This document shows positions 5,275-56,450 of a stretch of DNA of 64,000 nucleotides, one piece after another. A program made the translations under genes and the position numbers. The notes beneath the pieces were generated by a model. That model worked only from the letters and a program-made list of their open reading frames with translations. It had not been told where the DNA came from and made no database searches. Numbering within the stretch: the first letter of the stretch is position 1; each line of letters starts with the position of its first letter. Origin of the DNA: Escherichia phage AV111; the sequence record OR352941.1. One strand, 5' to 3'.

Positions 5275-5286
5275 ACTTTTATGAAA

Positions 5287-6087: not shown

Positions 6088-6103
6088 GGGGACCGAAGTC
6101 CCC
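6088..6103 (-). terminator. intrinsic terminator GGGGAC-UUCG-GUCCCC plus U6 tract, downstream of rIIB
   Basis: perfect 6-bp stem, UUCG loop, UUUUUUCUUU tail on minus RNA. Confidence 0.65.
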
Positions 6104-6108
6104 AATTA

Positions 6109-7044: not shown

Positions 7045-7053
7045 AATGTTTCC

Positions 7054-11513: not shown

Positions 11514-13333
11514 TATCCTAGCATCCAATCTTTACGGAGTTCAGGGTCGTTACCCATGAGCATTTCAAATAGTTCTTTCCAATTTTCAGGAAGTTTAACT
11601 ACGTCGTACACAGGGTTTTGAATCATTTCTTTATATTCATCTCGCTGAAGTGAGCCCAATCCCTTGATGTATCGAATACTATGCTTAGGCAGTGTATCTT
11701 TAACTTCTTCATACTCAGCTACAGTATAAAACCATTTTTGAGTTTTGCCAATTTGTGCAATAATTACAGGCGTTTTAACAAAGCGAATACGTCCTTGTTC
11801 AAACAATTCAGGCCAATTACTAAAGAAAGCAAGCAAAGCCGGATAAATGCTTCCAAGACCGTCATGATCGGCATCGGTCATAATTGCAATATTACGATAG
11901 TTCGTATTCTCTGCCTTTTCACCAAGAATAAGACCTGTGATAGCACAGATATCAAAGAGCTCTTTGTTCTTCATCATATCAGCATATGACATACCCCAGC
12001 TATTCATCACCTTACCACGTAATGGGAATCCGCCGTGTAGTTCACGGTCACGAACATCAATGAGATAACCAATTGCCGAATCACCTTCTGTTAAGAACAA
12101 TGTTGTATCTGCATCTTTACCACATTGGTTAGCTTTAATATGCTTATGAACCTTAGCTTTAGTTGCCTTTTTAGCTGCTTTAGTTTCTGCAGCCTTTTCT
12201 GCTGCCAATTTACGAGCTAATGCTGCTTCAACAATAGGCATAATCAAGGCTTCGTTTTTAAGAAGTGCCTGAGCAATTTTCTTAGCATCTAATTGGATAT
12301 GATTACGAATATCACCATACGTTGACGTTAAACGTTCTTTAGTCTGAGAATCAAAACGCATGTTGCTCATGTCTCTAATAAACATCAACATTGTGAGACA
12401 TTCTTTAACACGAGCTTTAGTGACTTCAATACCCTTATATTTCTTTTTAATACCTGGCAAAAGATGTTCGCAGATATCATCCATTACGCATTCAACATGA
12501 TGACCGCCGTTTTTAGTATGGATGTTATTCACATAAGTTAAATGACGGAAGCCATCTGGTGATGTTGTGAATGCTATAGAGACTTTATCATTTTCTTGAA
12601 TGATGTTATCTTCACCAAATTGTTTAGCAAATCGTTTAAAATTACCATCAACCTTTTTACCATTAAATGTGAACTTGATATCAGGATAAACGACTGCCAA
12701 TGTTTGAAGTCGATCTAAAGTAATATCTAAATAAATTTGAGATAAATTATGCTCTTCAAATGAAGAGAAATCAGGAGTGAAGATTACTTTAGTGCCTTTA
12801 CATTTAGATTTCTTAGAAGACCATGATTTGTTTTCCATTCCGTTTGAACAGTTAACAGTGATTTCATTTTCGCCATCTGACGTGATGCCTGTAAACAACG
12901 TAGAGAAGATATTAGTTAAACTACTCCCGACGCCGTTCATACCACCAGTCTTGCGTTCAGAATCATCACCAAAGTTACCACCAGCCTTTGGAATAGTCCA
13001 GGCTGCTACAGGCCCAGGAATTTGTTCACCTGTTTGGTCGGTAACTAAACCTTGAGGAATACCACGTCCGTTATCTTCCACCGAAACTTGATTATTTTTA
13101 ATTTGCACGTCAATTTTATTTGCAAACTTAAATGATGTACGAATAGCTTCATCAACCGAGTTGTCAATAATCTCATCGATTAATTTAACCAGACCAGGAA
13201 CATATTCAACTTGTTGATATTTACCAAACAAAAAACGCTCGTGGGCTTCTTTGGCCGAAGAACCAATATACATGCCACTACGTTTCTTAATATGTTCTAC
13301 ATCTGACAGTACCTTAATTTCATTTTTAATCAT
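11513..13333 (-). CDS. 39: DNA topoisomerase II large subunit gp39 (fused 39+60 ORF)
   Basis: 606 aa GyrB-like; MIKNEIKVLSDVEHIKKRSGMYIGSS matches T4 gp39; single ORF covers the region split into 39 and 60 in T4. Confidence 0.93.
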   Translation of the reverse strand: MIKNEIKVLSDVEHIKKRSGMYIGSSAKEAHERFLFGKYQQVEYVPGLVKLIDEIIDNSVDEAIRTSFKFANKIDVQIKNNQVSVEDNGRGIPQGLVTDQTGEQIPGPVAAWTIPKAGGNFGDDSERKTGGMNGVGSSLTNIFSTLFTGITSDGENEITVNCSNGMENKSWSSKKSKCKGTKVIFTPDFSSFEEHNLSQIYLDITLDRLQTLAVVYPDIKFTFNGKKVDGNFKRFAKQFGEDNIIQENDKVSIAFTTSPDGFRHLTYVNNIHTKNGGHHVECVMDDICEHLLPGIKKKYKGIEVTKARVKECLTMLMFIRDMSNMRFDSQTKERLTSTYGDIRNHIQLDAKKIAQALLKNEALIMPIVEAALARKLAAEKAAETKAAKKATKAKVHKHIKANQCGKDADTTLFLTEGDSAIGYLIDVRDRELHGGFPLRGKVMNSWGMSYADMMKNKELFDICAITGLILGEKAENTNYRNIAIMTDADHDGLGSIYPALLAFFSNWPELFEQGRIRFVKTPVIIAQIGKTQKWFYTVAEYEEVKDTLPKHSIRYIKGLGSLQRDEYKEMIQNPVYDVVKLPENWKELFEMLMGNDPELRKDWMLG

Positions 13334-13355
13334 GTTGTCTCCTCGTTATGAAGGT

Positions 13356-13380
13356 ATTCTATCATCCGAAATCTAAAGCA
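13356..13380 (-). promoter_or_regulatory. MotA-dependent middle promoter for gene 39 (MotA box TGCTTTA, 12 nt, -10 TAGAAT)
   Basis: read from sequence; fits the T4 middle promoter pattern. Confidence 0.55.
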
Positions 13381-13384
13381 AAAA

Positions 13385-13395
13385 GGGCCGAAGCC
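13385..13395 (-). terminator. short GGC-UUCG-GCC hairpin plus U5, downstream of ORF 13397..13822
   Basis: seen in sequence; weak stem. Confidence 0.4.
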
Positions 13396-13396
13396 A

Positions 13397-13822
13397 TTAT
13401 TTAAATTTAATTTTCTGAAGTGCATCAATTGCAGCCAGGCGCCCTTGTTCACTTTTAACTGTAATGACCACATCGCCTGATACGATCACCGAACCATCAA
13501 CAAATTCTATAGAGCCTTTTTTGAAATCGACAGCTGTATCTGGTTCCTGAACTTCTTCAAAGAATTTAAATTCTGCACCATAAAGCATAATATCACCTTG
13601 CATACTATGAATAGTTCGGCCATAATCGCCTACGGCTTCTACAGCAATAACCGAAACACCGTAACCAATCATCTCTTCCACAATAAAATCTTTGGACAAT
13701 AAAGTAGTATGCAGATTAGTATTAAGACGTTTACCAGTTGTATTAAGAATTCTCAAGAAATTATCTTCCTGCCCTTTGATAATACGATATTTCTTACCAA
13801 CTTCAAAACCTTTAAAAGCCAT
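13397..13822 (-). CDS. hypothetical protein (141 aa)
   Basis: ORF in track, ATG start. Confidence 0.5.
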   Translation of the reverse strand: MAFKGFEVGKKYRIIKGQEDNFLRILNTTGKRLNTNLHTTLLSKDFIVEEMIGYGVSVIAVEAVGDYGRTIHSMQGDIMLYGAEFKFFEEVQEPDTAVDFKKGSIEFVDGSVIVSGDVVITVKSEQGRLAAIDALQKIKFK

Positions 13823-13824
13823 AA

Positions 13825-14004
13825 TTAACCCTTCTTAAGTAAGTCGTAAAAACCACCGTTCACATGTTTAGGAGCAGAAACCCGACGAGTAGACAGACGA
13901 TGACATTCAGGGCAAACATCGTTTTCTCGTTCAGAAATCCTTTTAATTTTTTCATATTCATGTCCGCAATCTTCAGATTGGCATTTATAGTCGTATAACG
14001 GCAT
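13825..14004 (-). CDS. FmdB-like zinc-ribbon protein (59 aa)
   Basis: [18 protein letters not shown]...CPEC; ATG overlaps upstream stop (TAATG); below ORF-track cutoff. Confidence 0.55.
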   Translation of the reverse strand: MPLYDYKCQSEDCGHEYEKIKRISERENDVCPECHRLSTRRVSAPKHVNGGFYDLLKKG

Positions 14005-14435
14005 TATTGTTCCTTAAAGTGAGCTTTCAACATTTGATACAAAGACCATGCCTGGTCGCTATTTTCGATAGTAATCGACATCACAGGAAATTCAGACAAT
14101 TCATCAAGTTCTCCAGAGTCTTGCTCTTCAGACGCTTGATATGGATTTCCTACTTCATCGAAGAACTCAGCTTCGCATGTAGAAAGCCAGATAAAGTTTT
14201 CATCAAGGATATCACCACCTGTAGCGTATCCGACCATGCCAGTAGATGTCACAATTTTAGTAGGACGTCCAAGATGGTCAACATCTAATACTTTAAACGG
14301 TTCCATGCCAAGACGTCGTGCATAAATCCCATTATCAGTGTGGTCTTTAATAAACTCTTCTTGGGCACGTTTATCTATAAATTGATACCATGAGTTAACG
14401 CGGAATTTATTAGCCATTAGTAAGTTTCCTTCCAA
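14004..14435 (-). CDS. hypothetical protein (143 aa; start may be internal)
   Basis: ORF in track. Confidence 0.5.
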
Positions 14436-17522: not shown

Positions 17523-18836
17523 TCAAATAAAATGGACGTCAAAACGACCACGAGTCGTGCCGACATATAGTAATTGTTTGGCTAATTCTGAATCGGCATA
17601 ATGGATACACGGTGTATAAACAAAGGCCGTGTCAACAGATATACCCTGGGCCTTATGGAAGGTTGATACAGGTAGTGCCTTCACCTTAGTGAACATGCGT
17701 TTAGCATCCCAGAATTCGCTCCATGGAGCTTTACCGCCTTTATTCCAGAATTTGTATGTTTCTGCGGTCTTAGCCAAAAACAAATTGAATTTATAAAGCT
17801 CTTCTTCAGAAGAAATAACCTTTATATCCTCTCGGACGTATTCCTCATCATCACCATATGTTTCTACTGTAAGATTCCAGTATCGTATCATATATTCGCC
17901 TGAAACACCACGTGCTTTAACGAATGTAGACGTTTCTACAGCATCTCGAATACGAACGAATTGCCCATTATTGAAAAGCATTTCGGTCATATTTTTACCG
18001 TCTAGCTTATATGTCTTAGTAAATGGCTCTTGTAGAACAATGACTTCGTCTTTAATAAATGGTTTTTCTGTTTCAAGAAGTTTTCGGCGAATAATTGAAT
18101 TTAACTTGTCCACCGACTTATTTGTGAATGCCATCATTCGATTTTCGAAAAGGTCTTCAGGAGTTTTAACGACGTTAAAATAGTTCATCATATACGATTT
18201 AAGGTCTGTATATCCATGAACGCCGTGCCCATCAACTACTTTATCGTAAATCCATTTGCCATTACGAATATCAGTCGCAACATCAATAATTGGTGCATTG
18301 CTACGTTTAACTTCTGTAAGGTTGCATTGCACGAAGTCTTTGTGAGTGAAGAAAGGACTTAGATACGCAGTTGATTCGCCTGGGTCTACCGGACGAATCT
18401 GGCATCGGTCGCCGATTCCAATTACTGTACACCATTTAGGGATACTAGCTAACATTATTTTAAACAGAGAACGGTCGCACATTGACGCTTCATCAAATAA
18501 CAGTACACGACACAAGGCTAAGTCGGGAACCTTTTTCTGTTCAAACAATACGTTTTCTTCGTATGTAGTTGGGTTGATTTTAAGAATGCTATGAATAGTC
18601 GATGCTTCTTGACCCGCAAGTTTGCTTAGAACCTTTTTAGCGGCATGTGTAGGGGCTGCTAAAATAATACCTGATTCTCCTGAAGAAATAAGAGCTTCAA
18701 CAATAAATCTAGTAAGGGTTGTTTTACCTGTACCAGCCGGTCCATTAATAGTTACATGATGTTTCTTTTCTTTAATAGCTTCCATAACAACGTTGAAGGC
18801 GTTTTTCTGGCCTTCAGTCAAATCATCAAATGTCAT
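17523..18836 (-). CDS. dda: Dda DNA helicase (SF1)
   Basis: 437 aa; Walker A GPAGTGKTT; length and synteny match T4 Dda. Confidence 0.9.
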   Translation of the reverse strand: MTFDDLTEGQKNAFNVVMEAIKEKKHHVTINGPAGTGKTTLTRFIVEALISSGESGIILAAPTHAAKKVLSKLAGQEASTIHSILKINPTTYEENVLFEQKKVPDLALCRVLLFDEASMCDRSLFKIMLASIPKWCTVIGIGDRCQIRPVDPGESTAYLSPFFTHKDFVQCNLTEVKRSNAPIIDVATDIRNGKWIYDKVVDGHGVHGYTDLKSYMMNYFNVVKTPEDLFENRMMAFTNKSVDKLNSIIRRKLLETEKPFIKDEVIVLQEPFTKTYKLDGKNMTEMLFNNGQFVRIRDAVETSTFVKARGVSGEYMIRYWNLTVETYGDDEEYVREDIKVISSEEELYKFNLFLAKTAETYKFWNKGGKAPWSEFWDAKRMFTKVKALPVSTFHKAQGISVDTAFVYTPCIHYADSELAKQLLYVGTTRGRFDVHFI

Positions 18837-19144
18837 CGTAAAGTCCCTGCAATTGGAATACTAACAATACGGCCAGTGTCCAGGATTCGTTGATACAATC
18901 TTTGCGTCTCCGCATCTAGTTTAATGTGTTTCATTTCAAGCTTATTAAACCAGAACTTACGCGGAGTTTCGACCATTCTTAGAACTCCCATTTTTAAATC
19001 TGTTTTATACTGTGTTTTCAAAGTATCGAAAACTTTATCTGCAATATCCTTTCTAAAAAATACTGCAGGACGATGCTCATCAAGTGGAACCGGGACAGTA
19101 AATCCTTCCATATCTCGATAAACTATTGCATATACATAAACCAT
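18833..19144 (-). CDS. hypothetical protein (103 aa), dda.1 position
   Basis: ORF in track; ATGA overlap with dda. Confidence 0.5.
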   Translation of the reverse strand: MVYVYAIVYRDMEGFTVPVPLDEHRPAVFFRKDIADKVFDTLKTQYKTDLKMGVLRMVETPRKFWFNKLEMKHIKLDAETQRLYQRILDTGRIVSIPIAGTLR

Positions 19145-19146
19145 AA

Positions 19147-19893
19147 TTAACCTTTAATCAGTTGGAATAATGATGCGCTAAGTGGTAAGCCACGTTTCAA
19201 TTTTAATTTACCAATGAAACCAATCTTTTCAAAACGTTGCAGACCTTGGATAACTTTATCATATGTATCGAAAAGCGATTCAGCGTCAGTTAATTTAGTT
19301 TTAGTTTTCCAGTCAGAGCCTTTAAGAAGAACGTTGAGTTTAGTAAGTTCATGGCCTTCTGCTTGATGTGAGCCATTAATGCGTGCTTTCAAAGCAACAA
19401 TTCTAAGTTTAGATTCGTTAGATAAAGGTTGATTTTTCATCATGTTCGCCATATGCTTAACACGATTTTCACGTTTTGCTCGGATTTTTAAAATAGTATC
19501 ATAAACCTTTTTAATTTGGGCCCATTTCTTCTCGTCGAGATTAAGTTTCTCTACTTTACGGGCAGAAGGATTAGCAATACGTCTTGCAACAGCGTCACGT
19601 TTCTCAATAAGTTCTTCTAATGTTAAATCAGAACGAGCCGTGTTATATTTTTTCTTAACTGGGATAACATTACCTTTAATGTAGCCGATATCGTTATTAA
19701 AACGTTCTAAGGATAATTTCTCACCTTCAACAGAGTTATTAAAGGATTCGCCTGAGTAAGCGCAGACCTTTTGATCAAGAATGTTTTTAAGGTAATTAAA
19801 GTCTAAGTTAAAATCCTTAGAGCGTCTCTTCGCAGAAGCTCTGGTGTGGTCAAGACGACGATTGATTTTGTTAATTTTATTATTTGATAACAT
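19147..19893 (-). CDS. srd: Srd-like protein
   Basis: 248 aa; position between dda and modA as in T4; sequence not independently recognised. Confidence 0.5.
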   Translation of the reverse strand: MLSNNKINKINRRLDHTRASAKRRSKDFNLDFNYLKNILDQKVCAYSGESFNNSVEGEKLSLERFNNDIGYIKGNVIPVKKKYNTARSDLTLEELIEKRDAVARRIANPSARKVEKLNLDEKKWAQIKKVYDTILKIRAKRENRVKHMANMMKNQPLSNESKLRIVALKARINGSHQAEGHELTKLNVLLKGSDWKTKTKLTDAESLFDTYDKVIQGLQRFEKIGFIGKLKLKRGLPLSASLFQLIKG

Positions 19894-21699: not shown

Positions 21700-22156
21700 C
21701 TAAATAAAAACTAGGCTGCTCGGAGAATGTTTCTAGCGCTACACCTTTTGTCTTAAAAAATTTCCAAATAGCTCGTTGCAAATGGATTAAATCTGCTAAT
21801 GATGTAATAAAGTATTTTTTGGCAAAATACTTATGGTCTCGATTTTCAAACAAGTCTAAACGCTTTTCAGGATTCACATAAACGGCATTTTCCGTAGATT
21901 CATAACCTAAGTCCTTTATGCCTTCTTCAAGACTAAACGGAGAATTTTTAGAATGAGTAATAGCTCCAACTCGCTCTACACGAATTTTGTAACCTTTAGG
22001 AATCTGCAATTTGCAGAATTCTTCTACGATATATTGCGGATTATTTAGACTTTTGTTAATGAGAATAGCTATTTCTAGTGGAGTCTTATCTTCTACTGGT
22101 ATATGTTTAAATGACTTGGCTTCAAGCAAATACATTTTAAATAACATAGCATCCAT
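21692..22156 (-). CDS. hypothetical protein (154 aa), mrh position
   Basis: ORF in track. Confidence 0.5.
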   Translation of the reverse strand: MDAMLFKMYLLEAKSFKHIPVEDKTPLEIAILINKSLNNPQYIVEEFCKLQIPKGYKIRVERVGAITHSKNSPFSLEEGIKDLGYESTENAVYVNPEKRLDLFENRDHKYFAKKYFITSLADLIHLQRAIWKFFKTKGVALETFSEQPSFYLGE

Positions 22157-22331
22157 TATAATTTCCTCGATGGTTCACCCATATAAAGTTTTACAATACG
22201 TTCGCCTTCATCTTCGACGAGCTTTTCTTCATGTTTCTGGAATTCTTTAGCCATATTCTCTTCAAGAACATCCAGCCAATCTTCTGGTCCGACACCATCA
22301 TTCCAGCTTTTAAACCATTTTACTATTCTGT

Positions 22332-22520
22332 TCATTCGCAGCTCCCTGAGTCCGAACTACAATCGGAATAACTTGAACCAGAATCTCCAGACCAGGATGA
22401 TACGTAAGAATGATTATAACTTGAAGAGTTTGAAGCAGACTTAGGACGAATAACTTCTTCCATCATGCCGTCACCAATGTATTCCCAACTTTTTTCATGT
22501 GTATCAGGAATAGGCATCAT
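22332..22520 (-). CDS. hypothetical Ser-rich protein (about 62 aa)
   Basis: internal ATG at 22520 downstream of the stop of ORF 22534..22761; track ORF over-extended. Confidence 0.35.
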   Translation of the reverse strand: MMPIPDTHEKSWEYIGDGMMEEVIRPKSASNSSSYNHSYVSSWSGDSGSSYSDCSSDSGSCE

Positions 22521-22533
22521 ACCTTCGCCTGGT

Positions 22534-22761
22534 TTAGCAGCAAACAACTTCTTCAGCATCGTAAGCATTAATTGTTCCTCGAACAAAACGAACACCACCA
22601 TCATCCCAACGGATTTCGGCATTAAATTTGACGTCTTCACCATCCATCATGAATGAGTGTACGACTACGTCATCATAATATCCAAGACCGTATTTCAACG
22701 AAACTTCTTGTGCAATCAAAGCGCCTAATGTGTTATTAGGTTTAATCCAACGATTTAACAT
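22534..22761 (-). CDS. hypothetical protein (75 aa)
   Basis: ATG start, AAGAGGAA RBS, promoter upstream. Confidence 0.5.
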   Translation of the reverse strand: MLNRWIKPNNTLGALIAQEVSLKYGLGYYDDVVVHSFMMDGEDVKFNAEIRWDDGGVRFVRGTINAYDAEEVVCC

Positions 22762-22789
22762 ATTGTTTTCCTCTTGAGTAAGTAAGAAT

Positions 22790-22819
22790 ATCTTAACACA
22801 GTTTTTAGTGGATGTAAAC
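22790..22819 (-). promoter_or_regulatory. early promoter (-35 GTTTAC, 18 nt, -10 TAAGAT)
   Basis: read from sequence. Confidence 0.45.
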
Positions 22820-22835
22820 TCTAGAAACGAAAAAA

Positions 22836-22853
22836 GGAATCCCGAAGGATTCC
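22836..22853 (-). terminator. intrinsic terminator GGAAUCC-UUCG-GGAUUCC plus U6, downstream of soc
   Basis: perfect 7-bp stem, UUCG loop, U-run. Confidence 0.65.
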
Positions 22854-22862
22854 TTAAATTAT

Positions 22863-23099
22863 TTAACCACCTACTTCCGTGGGTGTGAACATTGCTTTGT
22901 TCTTAGTACGCCAATCTGCTGCGTCAGTCACCACAGTAGTGTAAGCAGCTTTTTCAGACGGGAAAGTCTGATAATGAGCATCAGCAATTCGGTGCTCATT
23001 TGAGTAAATCTCAAACGGTACAGAAACTTCCATACCTTTAACTTCTTTACCTTCACCAGCAGGATGCGTAAAGGTTTTGATGTTTACATAACCACCCAT
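22863..23099 (-). CDS. soc: small outer capsid protein Soc
   Basis: 78 aa; GYVNIKTF...AHYQTFPSEKAAY matches T4 Soc as recalled. Confidence 0.9.
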   Translation of the reverse strand: MGGYVNIKTFTHPAGEGKEVKGMEVSVPFEIYSNEHRIADAHYQTFPSEKAAYTTVVTDAADWRTKNKAMFTPTEVGG

Positions 23100-32390: not shown

Positions 32391-32939
32391 TTAACGAGCC
32401 CATTTAATGATTTCTGTAATCAAATTATTACGTTCGCTTGCATTAAATCCTATAACTTTGTTAGAACCATCATGATTAAGTAATTGATACGTTTGGATTT
32501 TGTTATGAATTGCAAACTCTTCAAAATGTGAAATGACTGTATTAAAACCGAATGAAGACAAAGTAATAAGGTCGTCTTCAAAACTTTCAGACATTTCGTT
32601 ACGTGTTAAAATAATTGTGAACACATCATGGTTTTGGCAAAGACGAACATAATCCTGTTCATAAACGTCAAGAACCGAGTCCGCATCTTGTCGAATACGT
32701 CCATAAACCCAGTTACTAATATATCCACGGTCTAACAGATAAATCTTAGTAGGGTCTAAATAATTCAACATCGTTTCGAAACAGCCAACTTCATTTCGAG
32801 ACTTAACATCGAAACGTCCATCAACTGTTCGTTTAGGGAAATCAATCTTTACATATCTTTCACTAATTTCCATTATGTCATTAATGAAAGTTGTTTTACC
32901 AGCATTATCTGGGCCATCTACTAAAATAATTTTAGCCAT
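32391..32939 (-). CDS. P-loop kinase-like protein (182 aa)
   Basis: Walker A DGPDNAGKTT at the N-terminus; sits where T4 has beta-gt. Confidence 0.55.
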   Translation of the reverse strand: MAKIILVDGPDNAGKTTFINDIMEISERYVKIDFPKRTVDGRFDVKSRNEVGCFETMLNYLDPTKIYLLDRGYISNWVYGRIRQDADSVLDVYEQDYVRLCQNHDVFTIILTRNEMSESFEDDLITLSSFGFNTVISHFEEFAIHNKIQTYQLLNHDGSNKVIGFNASERNNLITEIIKWAR

Positions 32940-32940: not shown

Positions 32941-33840
32941 TTATTCCTCGATTACGACATCTTCATATTTAGGTATATTATACGGCGAAGAAATTAAAGC
33001 GTTAAAGTAGATGAACTCACCAAGACCTGGATGGAATACTTCTTCAGGATTTTCGAAATATTGAATCTTCGGACGTCCTTTAAGAATTTGATAGTACTCA
33101 GTTTTAGTTGGATTAAAAATTCGAATCAGCGCTTCTTCAGGATACTTATTTCTGTCGAAACTATTATTTGGATCAGTTATATAAAGCGGTTGACCTAATT
33201 GAATTGCGCATTCAACCACTTGTTCAAAACGATAGCATGGGTCACTAATTCGAAATGGATGAAAAATACCATCTAGATGAATAGGAGCCAAATCACCTAC
33301 AAGACGCTGCATGACGGAAGGACGTATAACTTTCTGCGTTACGATAATCTTATTACCATCTGCACCTGCGTTAACCAGCACTTCTTTTTGACGTTCATTC
33401 AACACAGTAGTTTGAAGTGAACGATTAACAGACAACATGTCGGTTTTTAAGAATTCATCAATATAAAAACGTGGTTTATTAGGGTCTGCAGTGATATTGA
33501 AATTGAATTCTACATCAAAAGCGCCGTCATATCCAGTGATATCTGTGATTAGAAAATCGCAATCATAATAAGCAATTAATGAATCAACTACAAATTCATT
33601 TTCAGACCAGAAATATTTACGAGTGTTATACGCGTTATCTTTATACCATAATGGAACAAACTTAAATTCTGGAAAAAGACGTTCGCATTCTTTAATATCA
33701 GATGCATTACGTGGATATGTAATCACATCACCCGGATTAGCACGGTGCAAATGAAGTTGGAAGTTGCCATCCTTAAGGATAGCATACTGTCCAGTTTCAT
33801 AAGACCGCATACTCAAGATAGGTACGCGGAAAATAGCCAT
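32941..33840 (-). CDS. hypothetical protein (299 aa)
   Basis: ORF in track; part of the cassette between uvsX and gene 43. Confidence 0.5.
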   Translation of the reverse strand: MAIFRVPILSMRSYETGQYAILKDGNFQLHLHRANPGDVITYPRNASDIKECERLFPEFKFVPLWYKDNAYNTRKYFWSENEFVVDSLIAYYDCDFLITDITGYDGAFDVEFNFNITADPNKPRFYIDEFLKTDMLSVNRSLQTTVLNERQKEVLVNAGADGNKIIVTQKVIRPSVMQRLVGDLAPIHLDGIFHPFRISDPCYRFEQVVECAIQLGQPLYITDPNNSFDRNKYPEEALIRIFNPTKTEYYQILKGRPKIQYFENPEEVFHPGLGEFIYFNALISSPYNIPKYEDVVIEE

Positions 33841-34556
33841 TAGTCAAGGAATCCTTTAACATAATCAAAATCACGTTCAAACACATGGGCACTTACCATG
33901 GTATGAGTATAATCACCAACTTCTACACCACATTCGTTAGCGATATAATGAAGTAATTTTCCTTGGAGATAAAAATCCAACTGCATAACAACAGCACAGT
34001 TCTGAGAACGCATATGACAGTGGGTATAAAGCTTACCATCACGAATATAATAAGTCACTGAGTCAGTACATGGATATTCAAGCGTTTCGTCTGAATCAAG
34101 CAAAGCCTGATCAGAACTTTCTAGAATTTGGAACACAACTCTTCGAGAGTTAGGCTTCTCTTTAAGTTCTTTTAGAAGAGCTGGTAATTGAGCCGCAATG
34201 CGAGGACCATAGAAAGTGTTGAAGTTCGCCGGCAAAACATCTGATTTTGGTTTAGAAATAAATTTAGCGACATTAGGATATGCCTTAAACGCTTCTTCTG
34301 CGTTGGTACCACCAGAAATCATAAACTTCCAGAAGTCTTCGGCATATTCATAAGAGATGCGGTTAATACGTGGGTCGGTCATTTTGAATGATGACGGAGT
34401 GTCAACAACTACTGTCATAGACCCAATTTCATTACAACGTCCAATACGAGAATCAGTTACGAATTCCGGGTTTTCTAAAATTTCACGATTGACTGCTTTA
34501 AATGCGGTTTGAAAATCTGCGGCTTTGATATATTTCATTGTGTTATGTTTTCCCAT
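33840..34556 (-). CDS. thymidylate-synthase-family pyrimidine hydroxymethylase, divergent gp42-like
   Basis: motifs NSRR, EYPCT (catalytic Cys), YYIRDGK, HMRSQN align with T4 gp42 DSRR, FMCT, YLIRDKK, MRSND but overall identity is low. Confidence 0.65.
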   Translation of the reverse strand: MGKHNTMKYIKAADFQTAFKAVNREILENPEFVTDSRIGRCNEIGSMTVVVDTPSSFKMTDPRINRISYEYAEDFWKFMISGGTNAEEAFKAYPNVAKFISKPKSDVLPANFNTFYGPRIAAQLPALLKELKEKPNSRRVVFQILESSDQALLDSDETLEYPCTDSVTYYIRDGKLYTHCHMRSQNCAVVMQLDFYLQGKLLHYIANECGVEVGDYTHTMVSAHVFERDFDYVKGFLD

Positions 34557-34597: not shown

Positions 34598-34837
34598 TTA
34601 TTTGAATTTCTTGGCAGTGTTGATATAACGTAAAGCTTCAGCATCGATACTTCCAAGAACACTATGAAGAAATGCATCAGCGTAGTATTCCAATTGAACA
34701 GATTCTTTAATCACTTTAGCCGCTTTAGTTTCAAACAGGCCCATCAGGGCCTTTTTAAGAATTTGTTCATTAGTGTTCAGTTTCATAGTCAAAATCTCTT
34801 CATTAAGTTGGTGGTTAAAAGTTTTTCTAGAAATCAT
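34598..34837 (-). CDS. hypothetical protein (79 aa)
   Basis: ORF in track. Confidence 0.4.
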   Translation of the reverse strand: MISRKTFNHQLNEEILTMKLNTNEQILKKALMGLFETKAAKVIKESVQLEYYADAFLHSVLGSIDAEALRYINTAKKFK

Positions 34838-35994
34838 TCCGGGTACCTCAAAGCGTCATCAGAGTTAGTTATATCAATAATAGATATAGAGTTTTCTGCT
34901 AACCCGTTTTTAGATAATTGACGTTTATAATATCTTTCACAATATGTACACGTCGTCCCGCAGATTTCATTAGCACAATCGAAATCTGGATGTCTGAACC
35001 ACCTTTTTTCTAAAAAGCCATCTAACAAAGAGGTTTCAATATTTACTGTATGTGAAAACTCAGTTTCGTTTTCAAGAGTGAAAATAGTCTCTAAAGGCTT
35101 CCACAGTTCTAACAAATTACCTTCAAACTTTTCAGAAGCGTATGCTTCAAGAACTTTCAAAATGTAGTCTGTGCTACCTGTACGTCCTGAAACTTTGAAT
35201 TGAGTGATACCAATATCATTATAAAGTTTCAAATCTTGAGGACGAACAAAACGAGTTCTCAACCAGTTAAATGGGTCTGTATCACGAGCTTTAATACAGT
35301 GCTGCATAGGATATCCGTTTAAGGATTTAGCATCATCAGCTGTAACATCAGTACTATGGAAAATATAGCAAGAGTCACGATAGCTACAATGTGTTGTATA
35401 CCCTTTACCAGCATTAGAACAGAACTCATTTACAAGAACTTCAAATATTATATTGTTCTTATTGCAAAACTCTGCTGCACGCTTCAGGAAAGAAACTGAA
35501 CGGTTCTTATGAATTCCACAGCAGACCTTTTTGATATTATATTGGTCATGCAAGTATTTGATTTGAGTTACAGCATCGACATGTAGAATTGTTGAAACTT
35601 CAATCTCAATGTCTTTATTGACTTCACGAACAATTTCCATAACAACAGGGTTAGCGATAGTAATACGCCATACGCCTATTGACCAAAGATACTGAACATA
35701 ATCCTGAATAGCTTTCTTCTTCCACTCAACTAGTTCTCTTTTTGAACCAGGATTTATCGTGTTGAGTGTATAGTTAAAGCAAATACCTAATTCGTTACAA
35801 CGTTTAACGTAATCTTCTAACATCTTTTTGTCAACGTCAGGAAGCCTAAAATCAGGTCTGGCTGCTACAAAAGCCATTTCTCTTGTAGAGCCGTATACTT
35901 CGTTTATCAAGCTATTAGGATAGGTTTTATTGAGCTCTACGATTTTATCAAGAAGAGCTAAATCAAAATTCGTTCCGATTTTAAAAGTATTCAT
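34834..35994 (-). CDS. Cys-cluster protein (386 aa), possible Fe-S enzyme
   Basis: C-terminal CX4CX3CX2C cluster and an EFCSNAGKGYTTHCS segment reminiscent of the peptidase U32 signature. Confidence 0.5.
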   Translation of the reverse strand: MNTFKIGTNFDLALLDKIVELNKTYPNSLINEVYGSTREMAFVAARPDFRLPDVDKKMLEDYVKRCNELGICFNYTLNTINPGSKRELVEWKKKAIQDYVQYLWSIGVWRITIANPVVMEIVREVNKDIEIEVSTILHVDAVTQIKYLHDQYNIKKVCCGIHKNRSVSFLKRAAEFCNKNNIIFEVLVNEFCSNAGKGYTTHCSYRDSCYIFHSTDVTADDAKSLNGYPMQHCIKARDTDPFNWLRTRFVRPQDLKLYNDIGITQFKVSGRTGSTDYILKVLEAYASEKFEGNLLELWKPLETIFTLENETEFSHTVNIETSLLDGFLEKRWFRHPDFDCANEICGTTCTYCERYYKRQLSKNGLAENSISIIDITNSDDALRYPE

Positions 35995-36056
35995 TTTTTT
36001 TGCATCTCGCGTTAATTGATGCGATGGTTTTTTTTTTGCAGGTCTTACTTAAATTA

Positions 36057-36458
36057 TTATAGATTCGGTTTATATGATTTAAATGTTTCGAATTCGCCTT
36101 TATTCATAAGAGCTTTGAATTCATCAGGACGCATAGCTTTGTCGTCGATAATCCAATCATATACTGGTTTATGTGTTAGCAAATTATGGTACTTCAAACC
36201 AATGTTTTCCAAGTTCTGAATAAGACTTGGGAGAATGTCAATTGCTATACGACCAGGACCTACTGACTTCATACCACGAGCAGTGTAAAGCGTTATGGTA
36301 TGCCCTGCATCATACAGGGCATTAATGGCAGACACCATTTCGACGTCTGGTTTGAAGTTCACGTAATCACGATTGTTATTCCATTCCGTGATGCAATCAT
36401 CGACATCAAAACAAAGATTAAGCATGTTTTCTACACAGTGCATTAGATTCGTTCCCAT
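36057..36458 (-). CDS. HAD-superfamily phosphatase (133 aa)
   Basis: motif I FDVDDCIT (DxDxT), motif II TARG, motif III WIIDDK. Confidence 0.65.
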   Translation of the reverse strand: MGTNLMHCVENMLNLCFDVDDCITEWNNNRDYVNFKPDVEMVSAINALYDAGHTITLYTARGMKSVGPGRIAIDILPSLIQNLENIGLKYHNLLTHKPVYDWIIDDKAMRPDEFKALMNKGEFETFKSYKPNL

Positions 36459-38128
36459 TGATGAGTGATATCGCCACCGATTGGACGATAAGAAACACCA
36501 GTTTCTTTATCAGTTAGTACCCATTTACCAGGATTTTTTGTAATCAGAGTAGCCGTTACAGGTTCTGCTACGTCATAACTAATAGAGCCGTCTTGAAGTA
36601 CACGGCCCATGTTACGTAATTGCTTAGTCAGAAGTTCCATACCTTTATAATATGCTGCTACCGCTTTAAGTGGATTATTCTTGAAATAACCACCTAATGC
36701 AATCCAGATAATTGCTACAGCCAAATGATGATACTCGTTAAACGAACTCATCTTTCCATATTTGTAAACTAATGGATTGATGTTAATAGTCACATTACAA
36801 GTTGTTTCATCAATAGTAAACTGTCCCCAGGCCGGATTAGCATTGAATTCATCATAACCTGAAACAGCATAAAGCACTTTAGCTTCATCATACAATTTTG
36901 GCCCGTAAATCTTGGTTTCGCCAAAATATCCACGAGGGTCGATAAACTTGACTTCGCCGTTATCAGTAATCATAGTATTACTGAAGTTCGGGTCACCATG
37001 AATAACAGAGTACTGTCCCTGAGAACGGTTATGATAACGAATAAGGTGTTCTAAAGCTTGTTTCAGCATTGGCTTCAGACGTCCAATCTTAGTGTAGTTC
37101 ACATGTGTGATTTTACCAAATGAATCAATCAATGGTTGAATACTTTCACAACGATCAATAACTTTCGTATAGAATTCTTTAGTGAAATCACGACGAACAG
37201 TTTCAGGACTTACAAAATAAGTGTCTGTGCTGAATTTCAGTGCATCTAAAATTGCATCAACAATTTGTGGACGAGCAAGACTTGATTTGGATTTAATATA
37301 TTCAAATGCCGGCTTACCTTTAATGCGTTCCATTTCAAAGTTATTTTCATTAACAGAAACTAACTGAGGAACTGAATCTGATTTCACTTTAAGATACCAC
37401 GAAATCTCATCTTTCTGAAGAGCTCGACCCTGTTCGGTTAATGCGAATTTAGTTACAGTTTCTTCACCAATTTCAACTGCATTAAAACTACGATTAAGTT
37501 CACGAACTTCATGAGCTTTTTCAAGTTTAGGCATATCACCTAAATCAATTAGATTCATAAGCTCTGATTTATTGAATGCGCTGCCGTAAAGGAATTCTAC
37601 GAAATCACGTCCTTTGCAGTATTCATGAATTTCCTCATCGGTAGAACCCATATAGAATTCCCAGTCTTTGAACTGATAAATTCCTACAACATTACCACCT
37701 GTTGAACCTACGTTAGTGATATTTTCACCGTCGAAATTATATCGACATTCATCACCCTTAACATAGATTGCGTTAACATTCCAAGACCATGAACCAAAAT
37801 CAGGAATAATATCACACCAGTTAACAATTACGTTATGGCCGTCTAAATCTTTGTGTAATTTAGCAAGAGCATAAGCAGAACCATACGCTTCATCAACTGT
37901 ACGAATAGTCACATTGAACCCTTCTTGCTCACAATAAGCTCGAACAGTTTCAGCAAATTTTGAATGAACTACTACAATAATTTCATCTGCGCCAAGGTCA
38001 GAATAAATTGTATACAAATTGCTCAGAATAGTGTCTTGTTTATAGTTAACAAGCACCTTAGGAATATGATGCGTTATTGGATACAAACGAGTTGCCAGTC
38101 CAGCACCAAGAATAACAGCTTTTTTCAT
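36443..38128 (-). CDS. bifunctional sugar-1-phosphate nucleotidyltransferase / kinase (561 aa)
   Basis: N-terminus MKKAVILGAGLATRLYPIT (GxGTRLxPxT); C-terminal HGDPNFSN (HxDxxxxN) kinase motif. Confidence 0.7.
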   Translation of the reverse strand: MKKAVILGAGLATRLYPITHHIPKVLVNYKQDTILSNLYTIYSDLGADEIIVVVHSKFAETVRAYCEQEGFNVTIRTVDEAYGSAYALAKLHKDLDGHNVIVNWCDIIPDFGSWSWNVNAIYVKGDECRYNFDGENITNVGSTGGNVVGIYQFKDWEFYMGSTDEEIHEYCKGRDFVEFLYGSAFNKSELMNLIDLGDMPKLEKAHEVRELNRSFNAVEIGEETVTKFALTEQGRALQKDEISWYLKVKSDSVPQLVSVNENNFEMERIKGKPAFEYIKSKSSLARPQIVDAILDALKFSTDTYFVSPETVRRDFTKEFYTKVIDRCESIQPLIDSFGKITHVNYTKIGRLKPMLKQALEHLIRYHNRSQGQYSVIHGDPNFSNTMITDNGEVKFIDPRGYFGETKIYGPKLYDEAKVLYAVSGYDEFNANPAWGQFTIDETTCNVTININPLVYKYGKMSSFNEYHHLAVAIIWIALGGYFKNNPLKAVAAYYKGMELLTKQLRNMGRVLQDGSISYDVAEPVTATLITKNPGKWVLTDKETGVSYRPIGGDITHQWERI

Positions 38129-38181: not shown

Positions 38182-38313
38182 TTCATACTTTGCTTGTAGT
38201 CCAATCATAATCCATCCAATTACAAGTGTTGGAATCATTACCGGAGCCGTTAAGCTCCAGTAGATAGTCATGACAAGCATCAATAGTAAAAGTCCTATTG
38301 TTATTGCTTTCAT
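38170..38313 (-). CDS. small hydrophobic protein (47 aa)
   Basis: ATG overlaps SIS gene stop (ATGA); below ORF-track cutoff. Confidence 0.35.
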   Translation of the reverse strand: MKAITIGLLLLMLVMTIYWSLTAPVMIPTLVIGWIMIGLQAKYECFN

Positions 38314-38945
38314 TGTTCGCCTCGTAACATGGCACCTAGTGCACCGCCTGGATGGAACTTAAGGAAATCATTAGAGGTAAATCCACGTTCAGACGAAAGG
38401 TTGATAGCAAACGTATCGATAAGCGCTAACAACAATGTAGTGGACATTGTCGGAGCTAAAGAGTTCTCGTCAACTTCTACCGCGATACCGGTACAGAACG
38501 TATAATCAAAAAGAGCTTCGTATTCTTGTGGAATGTCAGGGTTACAATGTAACAGAATCTGTTTAACCTGAGGACGAATCATACGAAGATGTTTAGCAAC
38601 ACCTATCATTTCTTCAGTCTTACCAGAACGACTGATGTGAACTAATACATCATTAGGTGCAATAAATCCTGCGTCACCATGAGAATAATGCCCAGTGTTC
38701 AAGTACATACTCGGGATACCGAGTGAAGCAAATGTCTCAGAAGCTTTAGTTGCGATATTAGCATTCTTACCAACACCTGTAATAATTACCCGGCTTTCAT
38801 AATTGCTAAGTCCGGGGCGTCGAAGAGTTTCTAGAATAGCATTATAACGAGCAGGGTTTTGACTAATTACTTTGGCCATAGCGGCCAAAGAAGAAGCTTG
38901 TTTTATGATTGCGTCAATAGCGATAGTAATAGGAGTAGTTTTCAT
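38310..38945 (-). CDS. SIS-domain sugar-phosphate isomerase, KdsD/GutQ-like (arabinose-5-phosphate isomerase-like)
   Basis: ITGVGKN, HISRSGKTEE, APTMSTT, HPGGALG motifs align with the KdsD SIS domain as recalled. Confidence 0.75.
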   Translation of the reverse strand: MKTTPITIAIDAIIKQASSLAAMAKVISQNPARYNAILETLRRPGLSNYESRVIITGVGKNANIATKASETFASLGIPSMYLNTGHYSHGDAGFIAPNDVLVHISRSGKTEEMIGVAKHLRMIRPQVKQILLHCNPDIPQEYEALFDYTFCTGIAVEVDENSLAPTMSTTLLLALIDTFAINLSSERGFTSNDFLKFHPGGALGAMLRGEQ

Positions 38946-54165: not shown

Positions 54166-54636
54166 TTAATCATGTTTCCACACCCCATCGGTATTTGACC
54201 AAAGTCGCTGATTATCTGATCCTCGCCACAGCTTTTTAGTCGGAAGATTTTTCTCATACTTCCCATCAATAATAACATCAACATATTTAAGCATTTCTAG
54301 TTGTTTAATATCTTCAAACTTATATCCTGTCCACAACCAAATGCTTTTATTGGGATAAAGATTTTTTACTGTTTGAACAATGCAATGAATAACATCTCGA
54401 TTATCAGGATAGAGAGGGTCTCCTCCGGTTATAGTCAATCCTTCTATATAATCGTTATTCAAACATTCAATTAATTGTTCTAGTGTTTCACCAGTGAATG
54501 GAATACCATTTCTAGCATTCCATGTTGATTTATTATAGCACCCTTCACATTTATGCAAACAACCTGTAACGAAAAGAACGACCCTGCATCCAGGGCCATT
54601 CACAAAATCGCAAGGATAAAATCTATCATAATTCAT
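54166..54636 (-). CDS. nrdG: anaerobic ribonucleotide reductase activating protein NrdG (radical SAM)
   Basis: 156 aa; CX3CX2C motif CLHKCEGC near the N-terminus; synteny with nrdD. Confidence 0.9.
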   Translation of the reverse strand: MNYDRFYPCDFVNGPGCRVVLFVTGCLHKCEGCYNKSTWNARNGIPFTGETLEQLIECLNNDYIEGLTITGGDPLYPDNRDVIHCIVQTVKNLYPNKSIWLWTGYKFEDIKQLEMLKYVDVIIDGKYEKNLPTKKLWRGSDNQRLWSNTDGVWKHD

Positions 54637-56450
54637 TGGTGTTTAACCCTATGCATGATTTCTTTATTTTTGCCGAGATTAAATCCGCGTTCGTTCGGGT
54701 TTCCCAAATAACCGCATGTTCTTCTTATGGTGTTCATCTTTTTAGGATCAGTTTCTCCGCAAACTGAACAAACAAATCCGTTTTCAGTAGGAGTCATTTC
54801 ATGGGTACTTCCACATGTAAAACATTTATCTACTGGCATATTAACACCAAAATAATCTAAATGTTGTGCAGCATAATCCCACACGGCCTCAAGTCCTTTT
54901 AAGTTATTTTTCATATCAGGAAGTTCAACATAAGAAATGTGACCACCTGTCGCAATGAAATGATATGGCGCTTCACGAGAAATCTTTTCAAACGGAGTAA
55001 TATTTTCTTCTACTGAAACGTGGAAACTGTTAGTGTACCAGCCTTTATCGGTAACATCTTTTACACTTCCATATTTTTCTGTATCGAGTTTACAGAAGCG
55101 ATAACAAAGGTTTTCAGCAGGAGTAGAATACAAACTAAAAGCAAAACCAGTTCTTTCAGTCCACTGCTTAAGATGAGCATTCATTTTAGTTAAAATTTCT
55201 TGCCCAATATCACGGCCGACAAGAATATTCAATTCGTGAATACCAATGTATCCTAAAGACACTGAACTTCTACCGTTTTTAAATAACTCAATTATGTCGT
55301 CATCAGGTTTAAGACGAACCCCGAATGCACCTTCTTGGTAAAGAATAGGAGCTACAGTTGCTTTAACTCCTTTTAAGGAACTAATTCTACACATCAAAGC
55401 TTCAAAACACAGGTCCATTCGTTCGTTAAATAGCTCAACAAATTTCTGTTCATTGAACTGTGTTCCAATATAAGAATCTAACGCAATACGAGGAAGATTC
55501 AGTGTTACAACACCAAGATTATTACGTCCATCAAGAATTTCATTACCAGTCGAATCTTTCCATACGCTCAAGAAACTACGGCAACCCATTGGAGAAACTG
55601 GAACTGAAGAACCGGTAATAGCTTTATTATTCTTAACCGAAATAATGTCAGGATACATTCTTTTGCTTGCACATTCTAACGCAAGTTGTTTAATATCATA
55701 GTTTGGATCATCTTTATAAAGATTAACACCTTCTTCAACAAACATAACAAGTTTAGGAAAAATAGGAGTTATTCCATCACGACCAAGACCTTTAATGCGG
55801 TTTTTAAGAATTGCCTTCTGAATCATTCGTTCAGTCCAATCGGTTCCCGTACCAAATGTAATTGTTACAAAAGGAGTTTGTCCGTTTGAACTAAAGAGAG
55901 TGTTTACTTCATATTCATAAGCTTGGAATGCATCGTATACGTCTTTTTCTGTTTTAGATTGAGCATAATTCAACGCGTCAGCGATTTGCCATTTTTCTGC
56001 ATCTTCAACATGTTTAGCGTATGTACGTTTAACATAAGGAGAAAGAACTTTATCGACATTCGCAAAAGTCGTTCCGCCGTATTGGTGTGAAGCAACTTGT
56101 GCAGTAATTTGTGCCATAATTGCAGTAGCAACACCAATCGATTTAGGCGTTTCAATTTGAGCATTGCCTAATTTAAATCCGTTCTCAAGCATCCCTTTTA
56201 AATCTACTAAACAACAATTAGTAAAAGGCAATGATATACTGTAATCTAAATCATGAAAATGAATTAACCCGGCATTATGAGCATTTACAATATGGCTTGG
56301 AAGAATACTGCAAGCGATATGTTTAGAAACAATACCGGCCATTAAATCTCTTTTTGTTGGAAAGACACGAGAATCTTTGTTGGCGTTTTCGGTATTTAAT
56401 TCTTTATCTTTATTTGAAATAAAATTTAAAACATCTTTCTCTAAAGACAT
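54633..56450 (-). CDS. nrdD: anaerobic ribonucleoside-triphosphate reductase NrdD
   Basis: 605 aa; C-terminal glycyl-radical motif RTCGYLG; uninterrupted ORF. Confidence 0.95.
   Translation of the reverse strand: MSLEKDVLNFISNKDKELNTENANKDSRVFPTKRDLMAGIVSKHIACSILPSHIVNAHNAGLIHFHDLDYSISLPFTNCCLVDLKGMLENGFKLGNAQIETPKSIGVATAIMAQITAQVASHQYGGTTFANVDKVLSPYVKRTYAKHVEDAEKWQIADALNYAQSKTEKDVYDAFQAYEYEVNTLFSSNGQTPFVTITFGTGTDWTERMIQKAILKNRIKGLGRDGITPIFPKLVMFVEEGVNLYKDDPNYDIKQLALECASKRMYPDIISVKNNKAITGSSVPVSPMGCRSFLSVWKDSTGNEILDGRNNLGVVTLNLPRIALDSYIGTQFNEQKFVELFNERMDLCFEALMCRISSLKGVKATVAPILYQEGAFGVRLKPDDDIIELFKNGRSSVSLGYIGIHELNILVGRDIGQEILTKMNAHLKQWTERTGFAFSLYSTPAENLCYRFCKLDTEKYGSVKDVTDKGWYTNSFHVSVEENITPFEKISREAPYHFIATGGHISYVELPDMKNNLKGLEAVWDYAAQHLDYFGVNMPVDKCFTCGSTHEMTPTENGFVCSVCGETDPKKMNTIRRTCGYLGNPNERGFNLGKNKEIMHRVKHQ

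Follow-up and report, generated by a model that had tools for sequence, protein, structure and literature searches.

A U32-family protein of an RB69-like phage as a candidate oxygen-independent, prephenate-dependent pyrimidine hydroxylase

The pathway by which RB69-like phages make 5-hydroxycytosine was solved only in 2025-2026, and its single hydroxylase needs molecular oxygen. Herein lies a paradox; these phages infect gut bacteria that are often anoxic, and they destroy dCTP, so that there is no falling back on ordinary cytosine. How, then, could hydroxylation proceed when oxygen is missing? We address this question in a stretch of 64,000 nucleotides of Escherichia phage AV111 (sequence record OR352941.1), referred to below as the window, where the DNA-modification cassette contains a gene for a U32-family, putative Fe-S protein of 386 amino acids (34834..35994, minus strand, ATG start), the ortholog of RB69 gp50 (RB69p050, NP_861740). 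We hold it to be probable, if only modestly so, that this protein is an O2-independent, prephenate-dependent C5-hydroxylase of the pyrimidine nucleotide dCMP, and as such the anaerobic counterpart of gp48, the oxygen-dependent hydroxylase of the pathway. This reading starts from the U32 family and fold of the protein, the conservation of its cysteines, the purifying selection on its gene, its distribution among phages and its gene neighbourhoods; from these we infer Fe-S binding, the use of prephenate, independence of O2 and the choice of dCMP over dCTP, DNA or RNA as substrate.

Membership of the protein in the U32 superfamily is established and had been annotated before. The 386-residue open reading frame (ORF) is present as the original prediction gave it, on the minus strand, which that prediction left unnamed, and both peptide segments it quoted are found in the translation, the internal EFCSNAGKGYTTHCS at residues 190-204 and the C-terminal CANEICGTTCTYC at residues 340-352 (C340-X4-C345-X3-C349-X2-C352). 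The likeness to U32 that it had seen in the former stands at the level of the family and fails at the level of the exact signature. The Peptidase_U32 profile (PF01136) matches residues 94-286 (35137..35715, minus), the TIM-barrel core as judged from the alternation of strands and helices in the structural model, with 42.2 bits and an E-value of 7.3e-11 against a gathering score of 22.4, and it also matches 117 of 120 homologs among the matches listed. The PROSITE-type U32 signature, E-x-F-x(2)-G-[SA]-[LIVM]-C-x(4)-G-x-C-x-[LIVM]-S, which was checked on E. coli proteins, is matched by UbiU, TrhP and RlhA and by neither UbiV nor the window protein, in which profile alignment (HHalign) finds it degenerate, with a 5-residue insertion and a CX5C spacing. 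The predicted structure (AF2; pLDDT 93, pTM 0.91) has the U32 structure 5d88 as its top fold match. A PDB sequence search with the protein gave no match. By HHalign the nearest characterised relative is RlhA (probability 88%, E 3.4e-6, residues 53-285), the alignment to TrhP being weak (probability 23%) and those to UbiU and UbiV weaker still (6% or none). As judged from these comparisons the protein falls in a clade of its own, separate from the characterised U32 members; the profile of this clade reaches 1,713 of 1.84 billion representatives at E<=1e-3. The protein likely belongs to the hydroxylase subgroup. The ratio of nonsynonymous to synonymous polymorphism (pN/pS) against RB69 is 0.086, indicating purifying selection, RB69p050 and the window protein sharing 99.5% amino acid identity. 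Base composition gives no sign of recent acquisition. T4 has no counterpart, as had been predicted; the 221 phage records that bear a homolog are all of RB69-like or other non-T4 lineages.

Nine of the 13 cysteines of the protein (C158, C192, C203, C209, C233, C340, C345, C349 and C352) are invariant in 121 of 121 homologs, a set that reaches down to 47% identity, C177 is kept in 118, and C66, C72 and C159 vary freely. Two groups stand out, each a predicted metal centre. The first, C192-X10-C203-X5-C209-X23-C233 (35296..35421, minus), would be a variant of the canonical U32 [4Fe-4S] motif, CX6CX15CX3/4C (PMC6747719); the second, C340-X4-C345-X3-C349-X2-C352 (34939..34977, minus), appears specific to the subfamily and is absent from UbiU, UbiV and TrhP by HHalign. 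In a second test, on 130 full-length and more divergent representatives, C192 is found in 128 and C233 in all 130, while C203 and C209 co-vary, both being cysteine in 80 and giving way to G and H in about 25-28. Of the same 130, 108-113 keep the C-terminal four, the rest being nearly all alignment gaps with 0-4 substitutions per position. HHalign pairs C203 and C209 with C169 and C176 of RlhA, which are the first two ligands of the canonical motif (PMC6747719); the third and fourth canonical positions do not align. A K-x-x-G-R motif is also common to both proteins, its K267 and R271 being kept in 130 of 130. Given the conservation of the cysteines and the alignment of C203/C209 to RlhA ligands, the sequence suggests two metal centres, of which the C-terminal one may hold either Fe-S or Zn. 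A U32 match and conserved cysteines, the two points on which the original prediction had hung, were thus both found, at 42.2 bits and with nine residues invariant.

The CX3CX2C portion of the C-terminal group (C345-X3-C349-X2-C352) could also be read as a radical SAM motif, and a search with radical SAM profiles had been proposed together with the prediction. Radical_SAM (PF04055) gives no match at E<=1, the leading structural matches lack the radical-SAM fold, and the motif lies C-terminal to the U32 barrel, with one more invariant cysteine, C340, to make a group of four; we therefore reject this reading.

Which step of the pathway could need such an enzyme? RB69 DNA carries mono- and di-arabosylated 5-hydroxycytosine, not arabinosyl-hydroxymethylcytosine, and the ThyA homolog gp48 is the 5-hydroxy-dCMP synthase, which binds flavin mononucleotide (FMN) and takes its oxygen from O2, as 18O2 labelling demonstrated (Lee et al., NAR 2026, PMC13326640). 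In the same work gp55, gp52:53 and gp51 are proposed to lead from ribulose-5-phosphate to UDP-arabinofuranose, with gp46:47 and gp3 put forward as the arabinosyltransferases. Because all steps to the product are assigned elsewhere, and only gp48 needs O2, the U32 protein would most simply be an O2-independent replacement for gp48. The neighbour that the original prediction had called a hydroxymethylase is really this O2- and flavin-dependent 5-hydroxy-dCMP synthase (PMC13326640). With that chemistry, the strand and the exact signature corrected, the observation is confirmed and its interpretation, a role in nucleotide or sugar modification, is supported.

The proposed mechanism is as follows. 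dCMP would bind in the U32 barrel, two electrons would leave the pyrimidine ring via the Fe-S centres (two clusters, one for each conserved cysteine group), prephenate would decarboxylate to yield hydroxide, and the hydroxide would add at C5, giving 5-hydroxy-dCMP, phenylpyruvate and CO2; such chemistry has been proposed for U32 proteins (PMC10990095). Prephenate has been shown to be the oxygen donor for UbiU/UbiV and is proposed in this role for U32 proteins generally (PMC10990095), and the function of RlhA and TrhP requires it (PMC10990095, PMC6599085). Phage kinases would convert 5-hydroxy-dCMP to 5-hydroxy-dCTP for replication, arabinosylation following later on the DNA. In this way arabinosyl-5-hydroxycytosine DNA could still be built when the host, a facultative anaerobe, is deprived of oxygen during growth, for instance in the gut. 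RB69-like phages encode a dCTPase (RB69p028), so that in anoxia, without a working hydroxylase, there would be no cytosine nucleotide to polymerise. The demand for prephenate would be about 10^7 molecules per cell, if each genome has some 62,000 cytosines and the burst is taken to be about 150, a quantity that would explain why many relatives carry chorismate mutase and even DAHP synthase.

Prephenate is what chorismate mutase (CM) produces, and some phages encode this enzyme themselves. CM genes occur in 56 phage records; in each of those that were listed or examined, CM adjoins U32 and the ThyA-like gene. In Enterobacter phage Entb_45 an AroQ-type CM (CM_2, 40.9 bits against a gathering score of 27) overlaps the U32 stop codon in an ATGA, and in Shewanella phage Thanatos-2 (CM_2, 32.8 bits) the U32-CM pair has moved jointly to another place in the cluster. 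In the window, too, the U32 gene has a partner overlapping by ATGA, an arrangement that indicates translational coupling; here the partner is a gp49-like ORF of 79 amino acids (34598..34837, minus). We considered whether this protein is a diverged or duplicated chorismate mutase, and reject the idea; it has no CM_2, NCBIfam, PDB or BLAST match, HHalign against the phage CM profile gives a probability of 0.2%, and a gp49-like gene stands in tandem with a real CM in four phage loci of our collection (L014, L019, L022 and L027), in the order U32, gp49-like, CM, ThyA-like. Its model consists of three helices (pLDDT 72, a moderate value) with no fold match, and it evolves faster than its neighbour (pN/pS 0.31 vs 0.086 for U32). 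Because the window lacks CM and the gp49-like family coexists with CM in those four phages, Mosigviruses would appear to have lost the enzyme; for prephenate such phages, the window phage included, would depend on PheA and TyrA of the host.

Several observations concern the gp49 family itself. It always directly follows the U32 gene and has conserved INHKLNEE and DAFxHSxxGxIxAExxRHINxAK motifs; its members lie at L014:7155-7328, L019:7158-7394, L022:7155-7391 and L027:7152-7382, and are also listed at L021/L023:7158-7502. It is truncated to 47-58 amino acids in complete Mosigvirus genomes, and in Serratia CHI14-type and EcS1 phages an N-terminal remnant of gp49 is fused in frame to CM (a 114-aa ORF). 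In L013 and the Klebsiella phages Clarke_MM3 and SAKp28 the ThyA-like gene comes directly after the U32 gene (89% identical), some 45 bp away, with neither gp49 nor CM, and the upstream order of this lineage also differs, being AfhE-like, phosphatase, kinase-like, U32.

More distant viruses carry the association further. The survey of distant homologs (INDEPENDENTLY) covered 44 loci with homologs of 40-58% identity, drawn from IMG/VR (33), metagenome contigs (3) and species genomes (8 of 11 matches) and forming 33 clusters at 90% identity. CM, DAHP synthase or a CM-DAHP synthase fusion lies no more than 6 kb from U32 in 10 of these 33 lineages. Among the three neighbours on either side, a Pfam census of 23 loci counted thymidylate kinase 8 times, DAHP_synth_1 5 times, CM_2 and DNA polymerase III alpha 4 times each, dUTPase and SIS 3 times each and dCMP deaminase twice; the deoxynucleotide enzymes near distant homologs comprise dCMP deaminase, dUTPase, thymidylate kinase, deoxynucleoside kinase (dNK) and NT5C. 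A DAHP_synth_1 neighbour might have been a KDO8P synthase, and hence a pointer to sugar metabolism; for L026 this is rejected, the neighbour there scoring 221 bits as a DAHP synthase, of Bacillus type, and 67 bits as KDO8P synthase. On contigs the size of jumbo-phage genomes (L003, a 466-kb JGI contig; L044, L047, L049, L050, L053 and L055, IMG/VR contigs of 191-294 kb; L052, 148 kb; L038 and L040-L042) CM stands directly downstream of U32 or a fused CM-DAHP synthase adjoins it, and several of them add SIS and AfhE-like genes, DNA polymerase III alpha or dCMP deaminase. In the jumbo-phage loci, ORFs of 82 amino acids that precede U32 were considered as CMs and rejected; the CMs lie just downstream. 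Taken together, the shikimate-pathway genes of phages appear to be tied to the U32 enzyme.

In the distant lineages a ThyA-like gene is near U32 in 1 of 33 (a weak match), against 15 of 15 T4-like loci. Homologs of the window-type SIS isomerase, the AfhE-like enzyme or the gp46:47-type glycosyltransferase are found in 19 of 33, and in 8 loci a glycosyltransferase is directly upstream of U32. Another five of the 33 have a fused nucleoside monophosphate (NMP) kinase-SAM methyltransferase, then a protein of about 265 amino acids, then U32, beside a phage GP88-family gene. This module, seen in L004, L062 and L068-L071 (L071:3936-5213, 5201-6004 and 6001-7089), has a guanylate-kinase-like kinase, its protein of about 265 amino acids is without Pfam match, and its hosts are genomes or metagenome-assembled genomes of anaerobes (Phocaeicola faecalis, Tannerella, Woesearchaeota, BRC1); it suggests a pathway that hydroxylates and then O-methylates a nucleotide, perhaps to a 5-methoxypyrimidine. 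In loci without the O2-dependent hydroxylase, U32 thus appears to occupy its position, next to an NMP kinase and to an enzyme that would decorate a hydroxyl. The kinase neighbours favour a nucleoside monophosphate as substrate, and for some members this may be dUMP, not dCMP, as the neighbouring genes for dCMP deaminase and dUTPase suggest. L004 also has a second, faintly U32-like gene of 377 amino acids (13227-14360), 4 kb from the main homolog, after a radical SAM/SPASM gene (12160-13185) and among NT5C, dNK and nucleoside deoxyribosyltransferase-like genes.

The distribution of the U32 gene among phages, set beside that of the synthase, correlates in part with the oxygen relations of the hosts. 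The ThyA-like synthase is present in 373 phage records. The U32 gene is carried by 221, all of them at least 80% identical and all listing hosts in Enterobacterales or Shewanella, which are facultative anaerobes, whereas none of the 57 Acinetobacter and 20 Rhizobium phage records that carry the synthase has it. In Acinetobacter phage Konradin the phosphatase gene runs directly to the ThyA-like gene, and in E. coli Dhakavirus IME281 it does so via a thymidylate kinase, in both with neither U32 nor a small partner ORF; DLP3 makes tri-arabinosyl-5-hydroxycytosine with no U32 gene (PMC13326640). The U32 gene is hence an accessory of the aerobic 5-hydroxycytosine pathway. The IME281 cluster (L010, 3853-8589) also lacks the SIS isomerase, its minimal set being AfhE-like, phosphatase, kinase, ThyA-like and glycosyltransferase, and arabinose-5-phosphate presumably comes from KdsD or GutQ of the host. 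Outside these phages, a scan of 185,579 species genomes with fixed peptide patterns, which is not exhaustive, gave 11 matches, each of them in a lineage that is of anaerobe type or uncultured (Erysipelotrichales, Oscillospiraceae, Gastranaerophilaceae, Romboutsia, Tannerella, Phocaeicola faecalis, Woesearchaeota and others).

Such a pairing of routes has close parallels. In the synthesis of ho5U34 in tRNA two unrelated enzymes, O2-dependent TrhO and the prephenate-dependent U32 protein TrhP, make one product, a duality described as an adaptation to oxic and anoxic life (PMC6599085), and gp48 and gp50 are proposed to be paired alike; unlike TrhO, a rhodanese, gp48 is a flavoenzyme of the ThyA fold, and the proposed substrate of gp50 is a deoxynucleotide destined for DNA. 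Ubiquinone likewise has an O2-dependent and a prephenate-dependent route to one product. UbiU and UbiV, of the latter, belong to the U32 family and hold one [4Fe-4S] per subunit on four conserved cysteines (PMC6747719, PMC10990095), hence two clusters per functional unit, where the window protein is predicted to have two in one chain; their fourth-ligand position varies (UbiU C232, UbiV C39), a precedent for the variant motif of the window protein, and they differ from it in having a lipid substrate and in forming a heterodimer, to which the carrier UbiT is added. RlhA (YdcP), the E. coli synthase of 5-hydroxycytidine at C2501 of 23S rRNA, is of the same Pfam family with the same proposed hydroxylation at C5 of cytosine, and both iron and the prephenate pathway are needed for its activity (PMC5727448). 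RlhA has 653 residues, a long C-terminal region and an rRNA substrate, whereas the window protein has 386 and is encoded among genes of deoxynucleotide metabolism and DNA glycosylation; the latter appears to use C192 and C233 where RlhA has the CX15CX3C pair, and has a C-terminal CX4CX3CX2C of its own. The fold match 5d88 is Mk0906, the U32 'peptidase' of Methanopyrus kandleri, which at 11-14% identity shares a 247-residue core and lacks the C-terminal cysteine module. The ThyA-like synthases, gp48 and DLP3 gp80, have the same proposed product and pathway as gp50 in an unrelated fold, that of thymidylate synthase; they need FMN and O2, and are found, without a U32 gene, in phages of strict aerobes. 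Finally, the CmoA/CmoX carboxymethylcytosine system of Synechococcus phage S-B43 is the documented case, in the literature covered, of a phage that uses prephenate and a re-purposed RNA-modification family to modify C5 of cytosine in DNA (PMC12783734); there prephenate is used by the SAM carboxylase CmoA and not by a U32 protein, and profile scans find no CmoA-like gene in the window cassette.

Is the neighbourhood equally compatible with work on the sugar? That the protein is a reductase, epimerase or isomerase acting on arabinose phosphate or NDP-arabinose we consider improbable, though it is the best of the alternatives. A TIM barrel is common to many sugar-phosphate enzymes, the gene sits between the HAD phosphatase and the ThyA-like gene, and SIS, AfhE-like and glycosyltransferase genes accompany it in the 19 of 33 distant lineages; labels that favour this reading stand in Table 1 of PMC13326640 ('sugar or heterocycle reductase' for gp50) and in PMC13390438, and gp50 is probably the 'epimerase' of the Durham-collection paper. 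However, a complete route from ribulose-5-phosphate to UDP-arabinofuranose already has its enzymes assigned (gp55, gp52:53 and gp51), the DLP3, Konradin and Dhakavirus clusters have no U32 gene, and arabinose is the sole sugar reported in RB69 DNA. A sugar enzyme would also leave unexplained the association with CM and DAHP synthase, the NMP kinase-methyltransferase module, which is free of sugar genes, and the similarity to RlhA.

Less probable again is an RNA hydroxylase like RlhA or TrhP, which would act on host or phage tRNA or rRNA (ho5C, ho5U) and tune translation during infection. The characterised U32 proteins that hydroxylate pyrimidines all act on RNA, RlhA is the nearest of them by profile alignment, and T4-like phages encode tRNAs. 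Yet in 15 of 15 T4-like loci the U32 gene forms part of the DNA-modification cassette and travels with it, its distant homologs adjoin deoxynucleotide enzymes, the protein has no equivalent of the long C-terminal extensions found in RlhA (653 aa) and TrhP (453 aa), and both of those enzymes are already present in enterobacterial hosts. We rate as slightly less probable still an Fe-S redox partner of gp48 that supplies reduced flavin or electrons and is itself no hydroxylase. gp48 holds FMN loosely and needs re-reduction at each turnover (PMC13326640), two conserved cysteine groups suggest electron transfer, and the two genes are adjacent; against this, gp48 and a kinase suffice for 5-hydroxydeoxycytidine in E. 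coli without gp50 (PMC13326640), homologs of gp48 occur without U32 in the Acinetobacter, Rhizobium and Dhakavirus phages, distant viruses have U32 with no ThyA-like gene nearby, and the link to CM and DAHP synthase is left unexplained. A protease or collagenase, after the family name and most GenBank 'peptidase' annotations, is hardly credible, as database names are all that speaks for it, the label is historical, the characterised members being Fe-S proteins of O2-independent hydroxylations (PMC6747719, PMC10990095), and the genomic context is wholly that of nucleotide and sugar metabolism.

The proposal of a prephenate-dependent hydroxylase has itself several points to answer. The canonical cysteine motif and the PROSITE signature are kept only in part, and of the NCBIfam equivalog models only UbiU responds, at 18.5 bits against a cut-off of 440. 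Even RlhA and TrhP still await direct in vitro reconstitution of their hydroxylase activity (PMC10990095). Chorismate mutase is absent from the window phage, which makes the CM link indirect for its genome, and the Klebsiella lineage of Clarke_MM3 type has no partner ORF at all. Some 40 E. coli Dhakavirus-type records have the synthase without U32, hence facultatively anaerobic hosts do not require the gene, and the correlation with hosts rests on few phage clades, that is, few independent events. The neighbourhoods of the distant homologs covered about 6-8 kb, and a ThyA-like gene could lie elsewhere in those viral genomes. Co-location with sugar genes fits a role in the sugar pathway equally well. 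In PMC13326640 gp50 appears only in Table 1, undiscussed, and RlhA/TrhP RNA hydroxylation is cited in its Discussion with no tie to gp50. A full-text search of the literature found no link of U32 or prephenate to phage DNA hydroxylation, two recent key papers lying outside its coverage. The papers on Thanatos, the Durham collection and the Tevenvirinae mention neither U32, chorismate nor prephenate in such a context, and a paper of June 2026 that has an author in common with Lee et al. still treats the cluster only as sugar-modifying genes and states that the full pathway is uncharacterised (PMC13390438). The U32 annotation is thus old, and a hydroxylase function for gp50 was not found in the literature covered.

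The remaining features of the window place the gene in its setting. The phage is an RB69-like Mosigvirus, and its cassette is 98-99% identical in DNA to those of phages FL31, JK42 and APCEc01. Its genes, all on the minus strand, run in the order gp43 DNA polymerase, SIS, kinase/NTP-transferase, HAD, U32, the 79-aa ORF, ThyA-family, glycosyltransferase, kinase-like and UvsX. The SIS-domain arabinose-5-phosphate isomerase, the equivalent of RB69 gp55, lies at 38310..38945 (KpsF/GutQ 110.7 bits, KdsD 105 bits). The bifunctional sugar kinase/NTP-transferase (RB69 gp52:53 or AfhE-like; 36443..38128) has 561 residues with Pfam NTP_transferase and kinase-like matches (PMC6024577, PMC13326640), and is followed by the HAD phosphatase (RB69 gp51 or AfhF-like; 36057..36458; TIGR01689, 50.5 bits; PMC13326640). 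Past U32 and the gp49-like ORF come the ThyA-family 5-hydroxy-dCMP synthase (33840..34556; Pfam Thymidylat_synt, 99.2% amino acid identity to its ortholog gp48; function from PMC13326640), a putative first DNA arabinosyltransferase of 299 residues (RB69 gp46:47 equivalent; 32941..33840) and a thymidylate-kinase-like nucleotide kinase (RB69 gp45 equivalent; 32391..32939; PHROG 761), the latter two named after Table 1 of PMC13326640. The ORFs of 299 and 561 residues are intact in the window and split in RB69 NC_004928 (L060) as p046/p047 and p052/p053 (22156-23056 and 17873-19559), in agreement with the published view that the splits are sequencing errors. Upstream of the U32 gene (35995-36030, minus) are a run of eight A's directly 5' of the ATG, a 7-bp stem-loop about 10 nt upstream (36007-36024) and a promoter-like TTTAAA-16-TATAAT (36083-36056); promoter and terminator scans are at chance level, so that these elements are no evidence of regulation. 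Elsewhere the window encodes the anaerobic ribonucleotide reductase, nrdD (54633-56450, minus; 94% amino acid identity to RB69) and nrdG (54166-54636, minus; 98.7%). The phage is thus equipped for replication without O2, and nrdD/nrdG are an anaerobic duplicate of an O2-dependent nucleotide enzyme.

What would follow if the proposal is true? The paradox of the oxygen-dependent pathway would be resolved by a prephenate-dependent U32 hydroxylase, the first in the metabolism of DNA and not of RNA or quinones, and a function would be assigned to a gene unexplained since 2006. Organic oxygen donor chemistry would extend from RNA and quinones to DNA precursors, and the presence of shikimate-pathway genes in phages would be explained. 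That the whole clade, about 490 clusters at 50% identity and mostly viral, consists of O2-free, prephenate-using C5-hydroxylases of pyrimidine deoxynucleotides, with T4-like phages pairing an aerobic and an anaerobic route, is an extension that we put forward more tentatively, as something a little short of probable. If so, U32 would be the only route in viruses of strict anaerobes, which would carry glycosylated or O-methylated 5-hydroxypyrimidine DNA, some of them encoding CM and DAHP synthase for the 10^7 or so prephenate molecules of each burst, and hundreds of uncultured anaerobe viruses would be marked out as likely to contain pyrimidines that are hydroxylated, glycosylated or methoxylated. 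There would be consequences for phage therapy in the anoxic gut, phages without U32, such as the Dhakaviruses, being predicted to depend on oxygen, and the pairing of aerobic and anaerobic hydroxylases would parallel the way in which T4-like phages reduce ribonucleotides.

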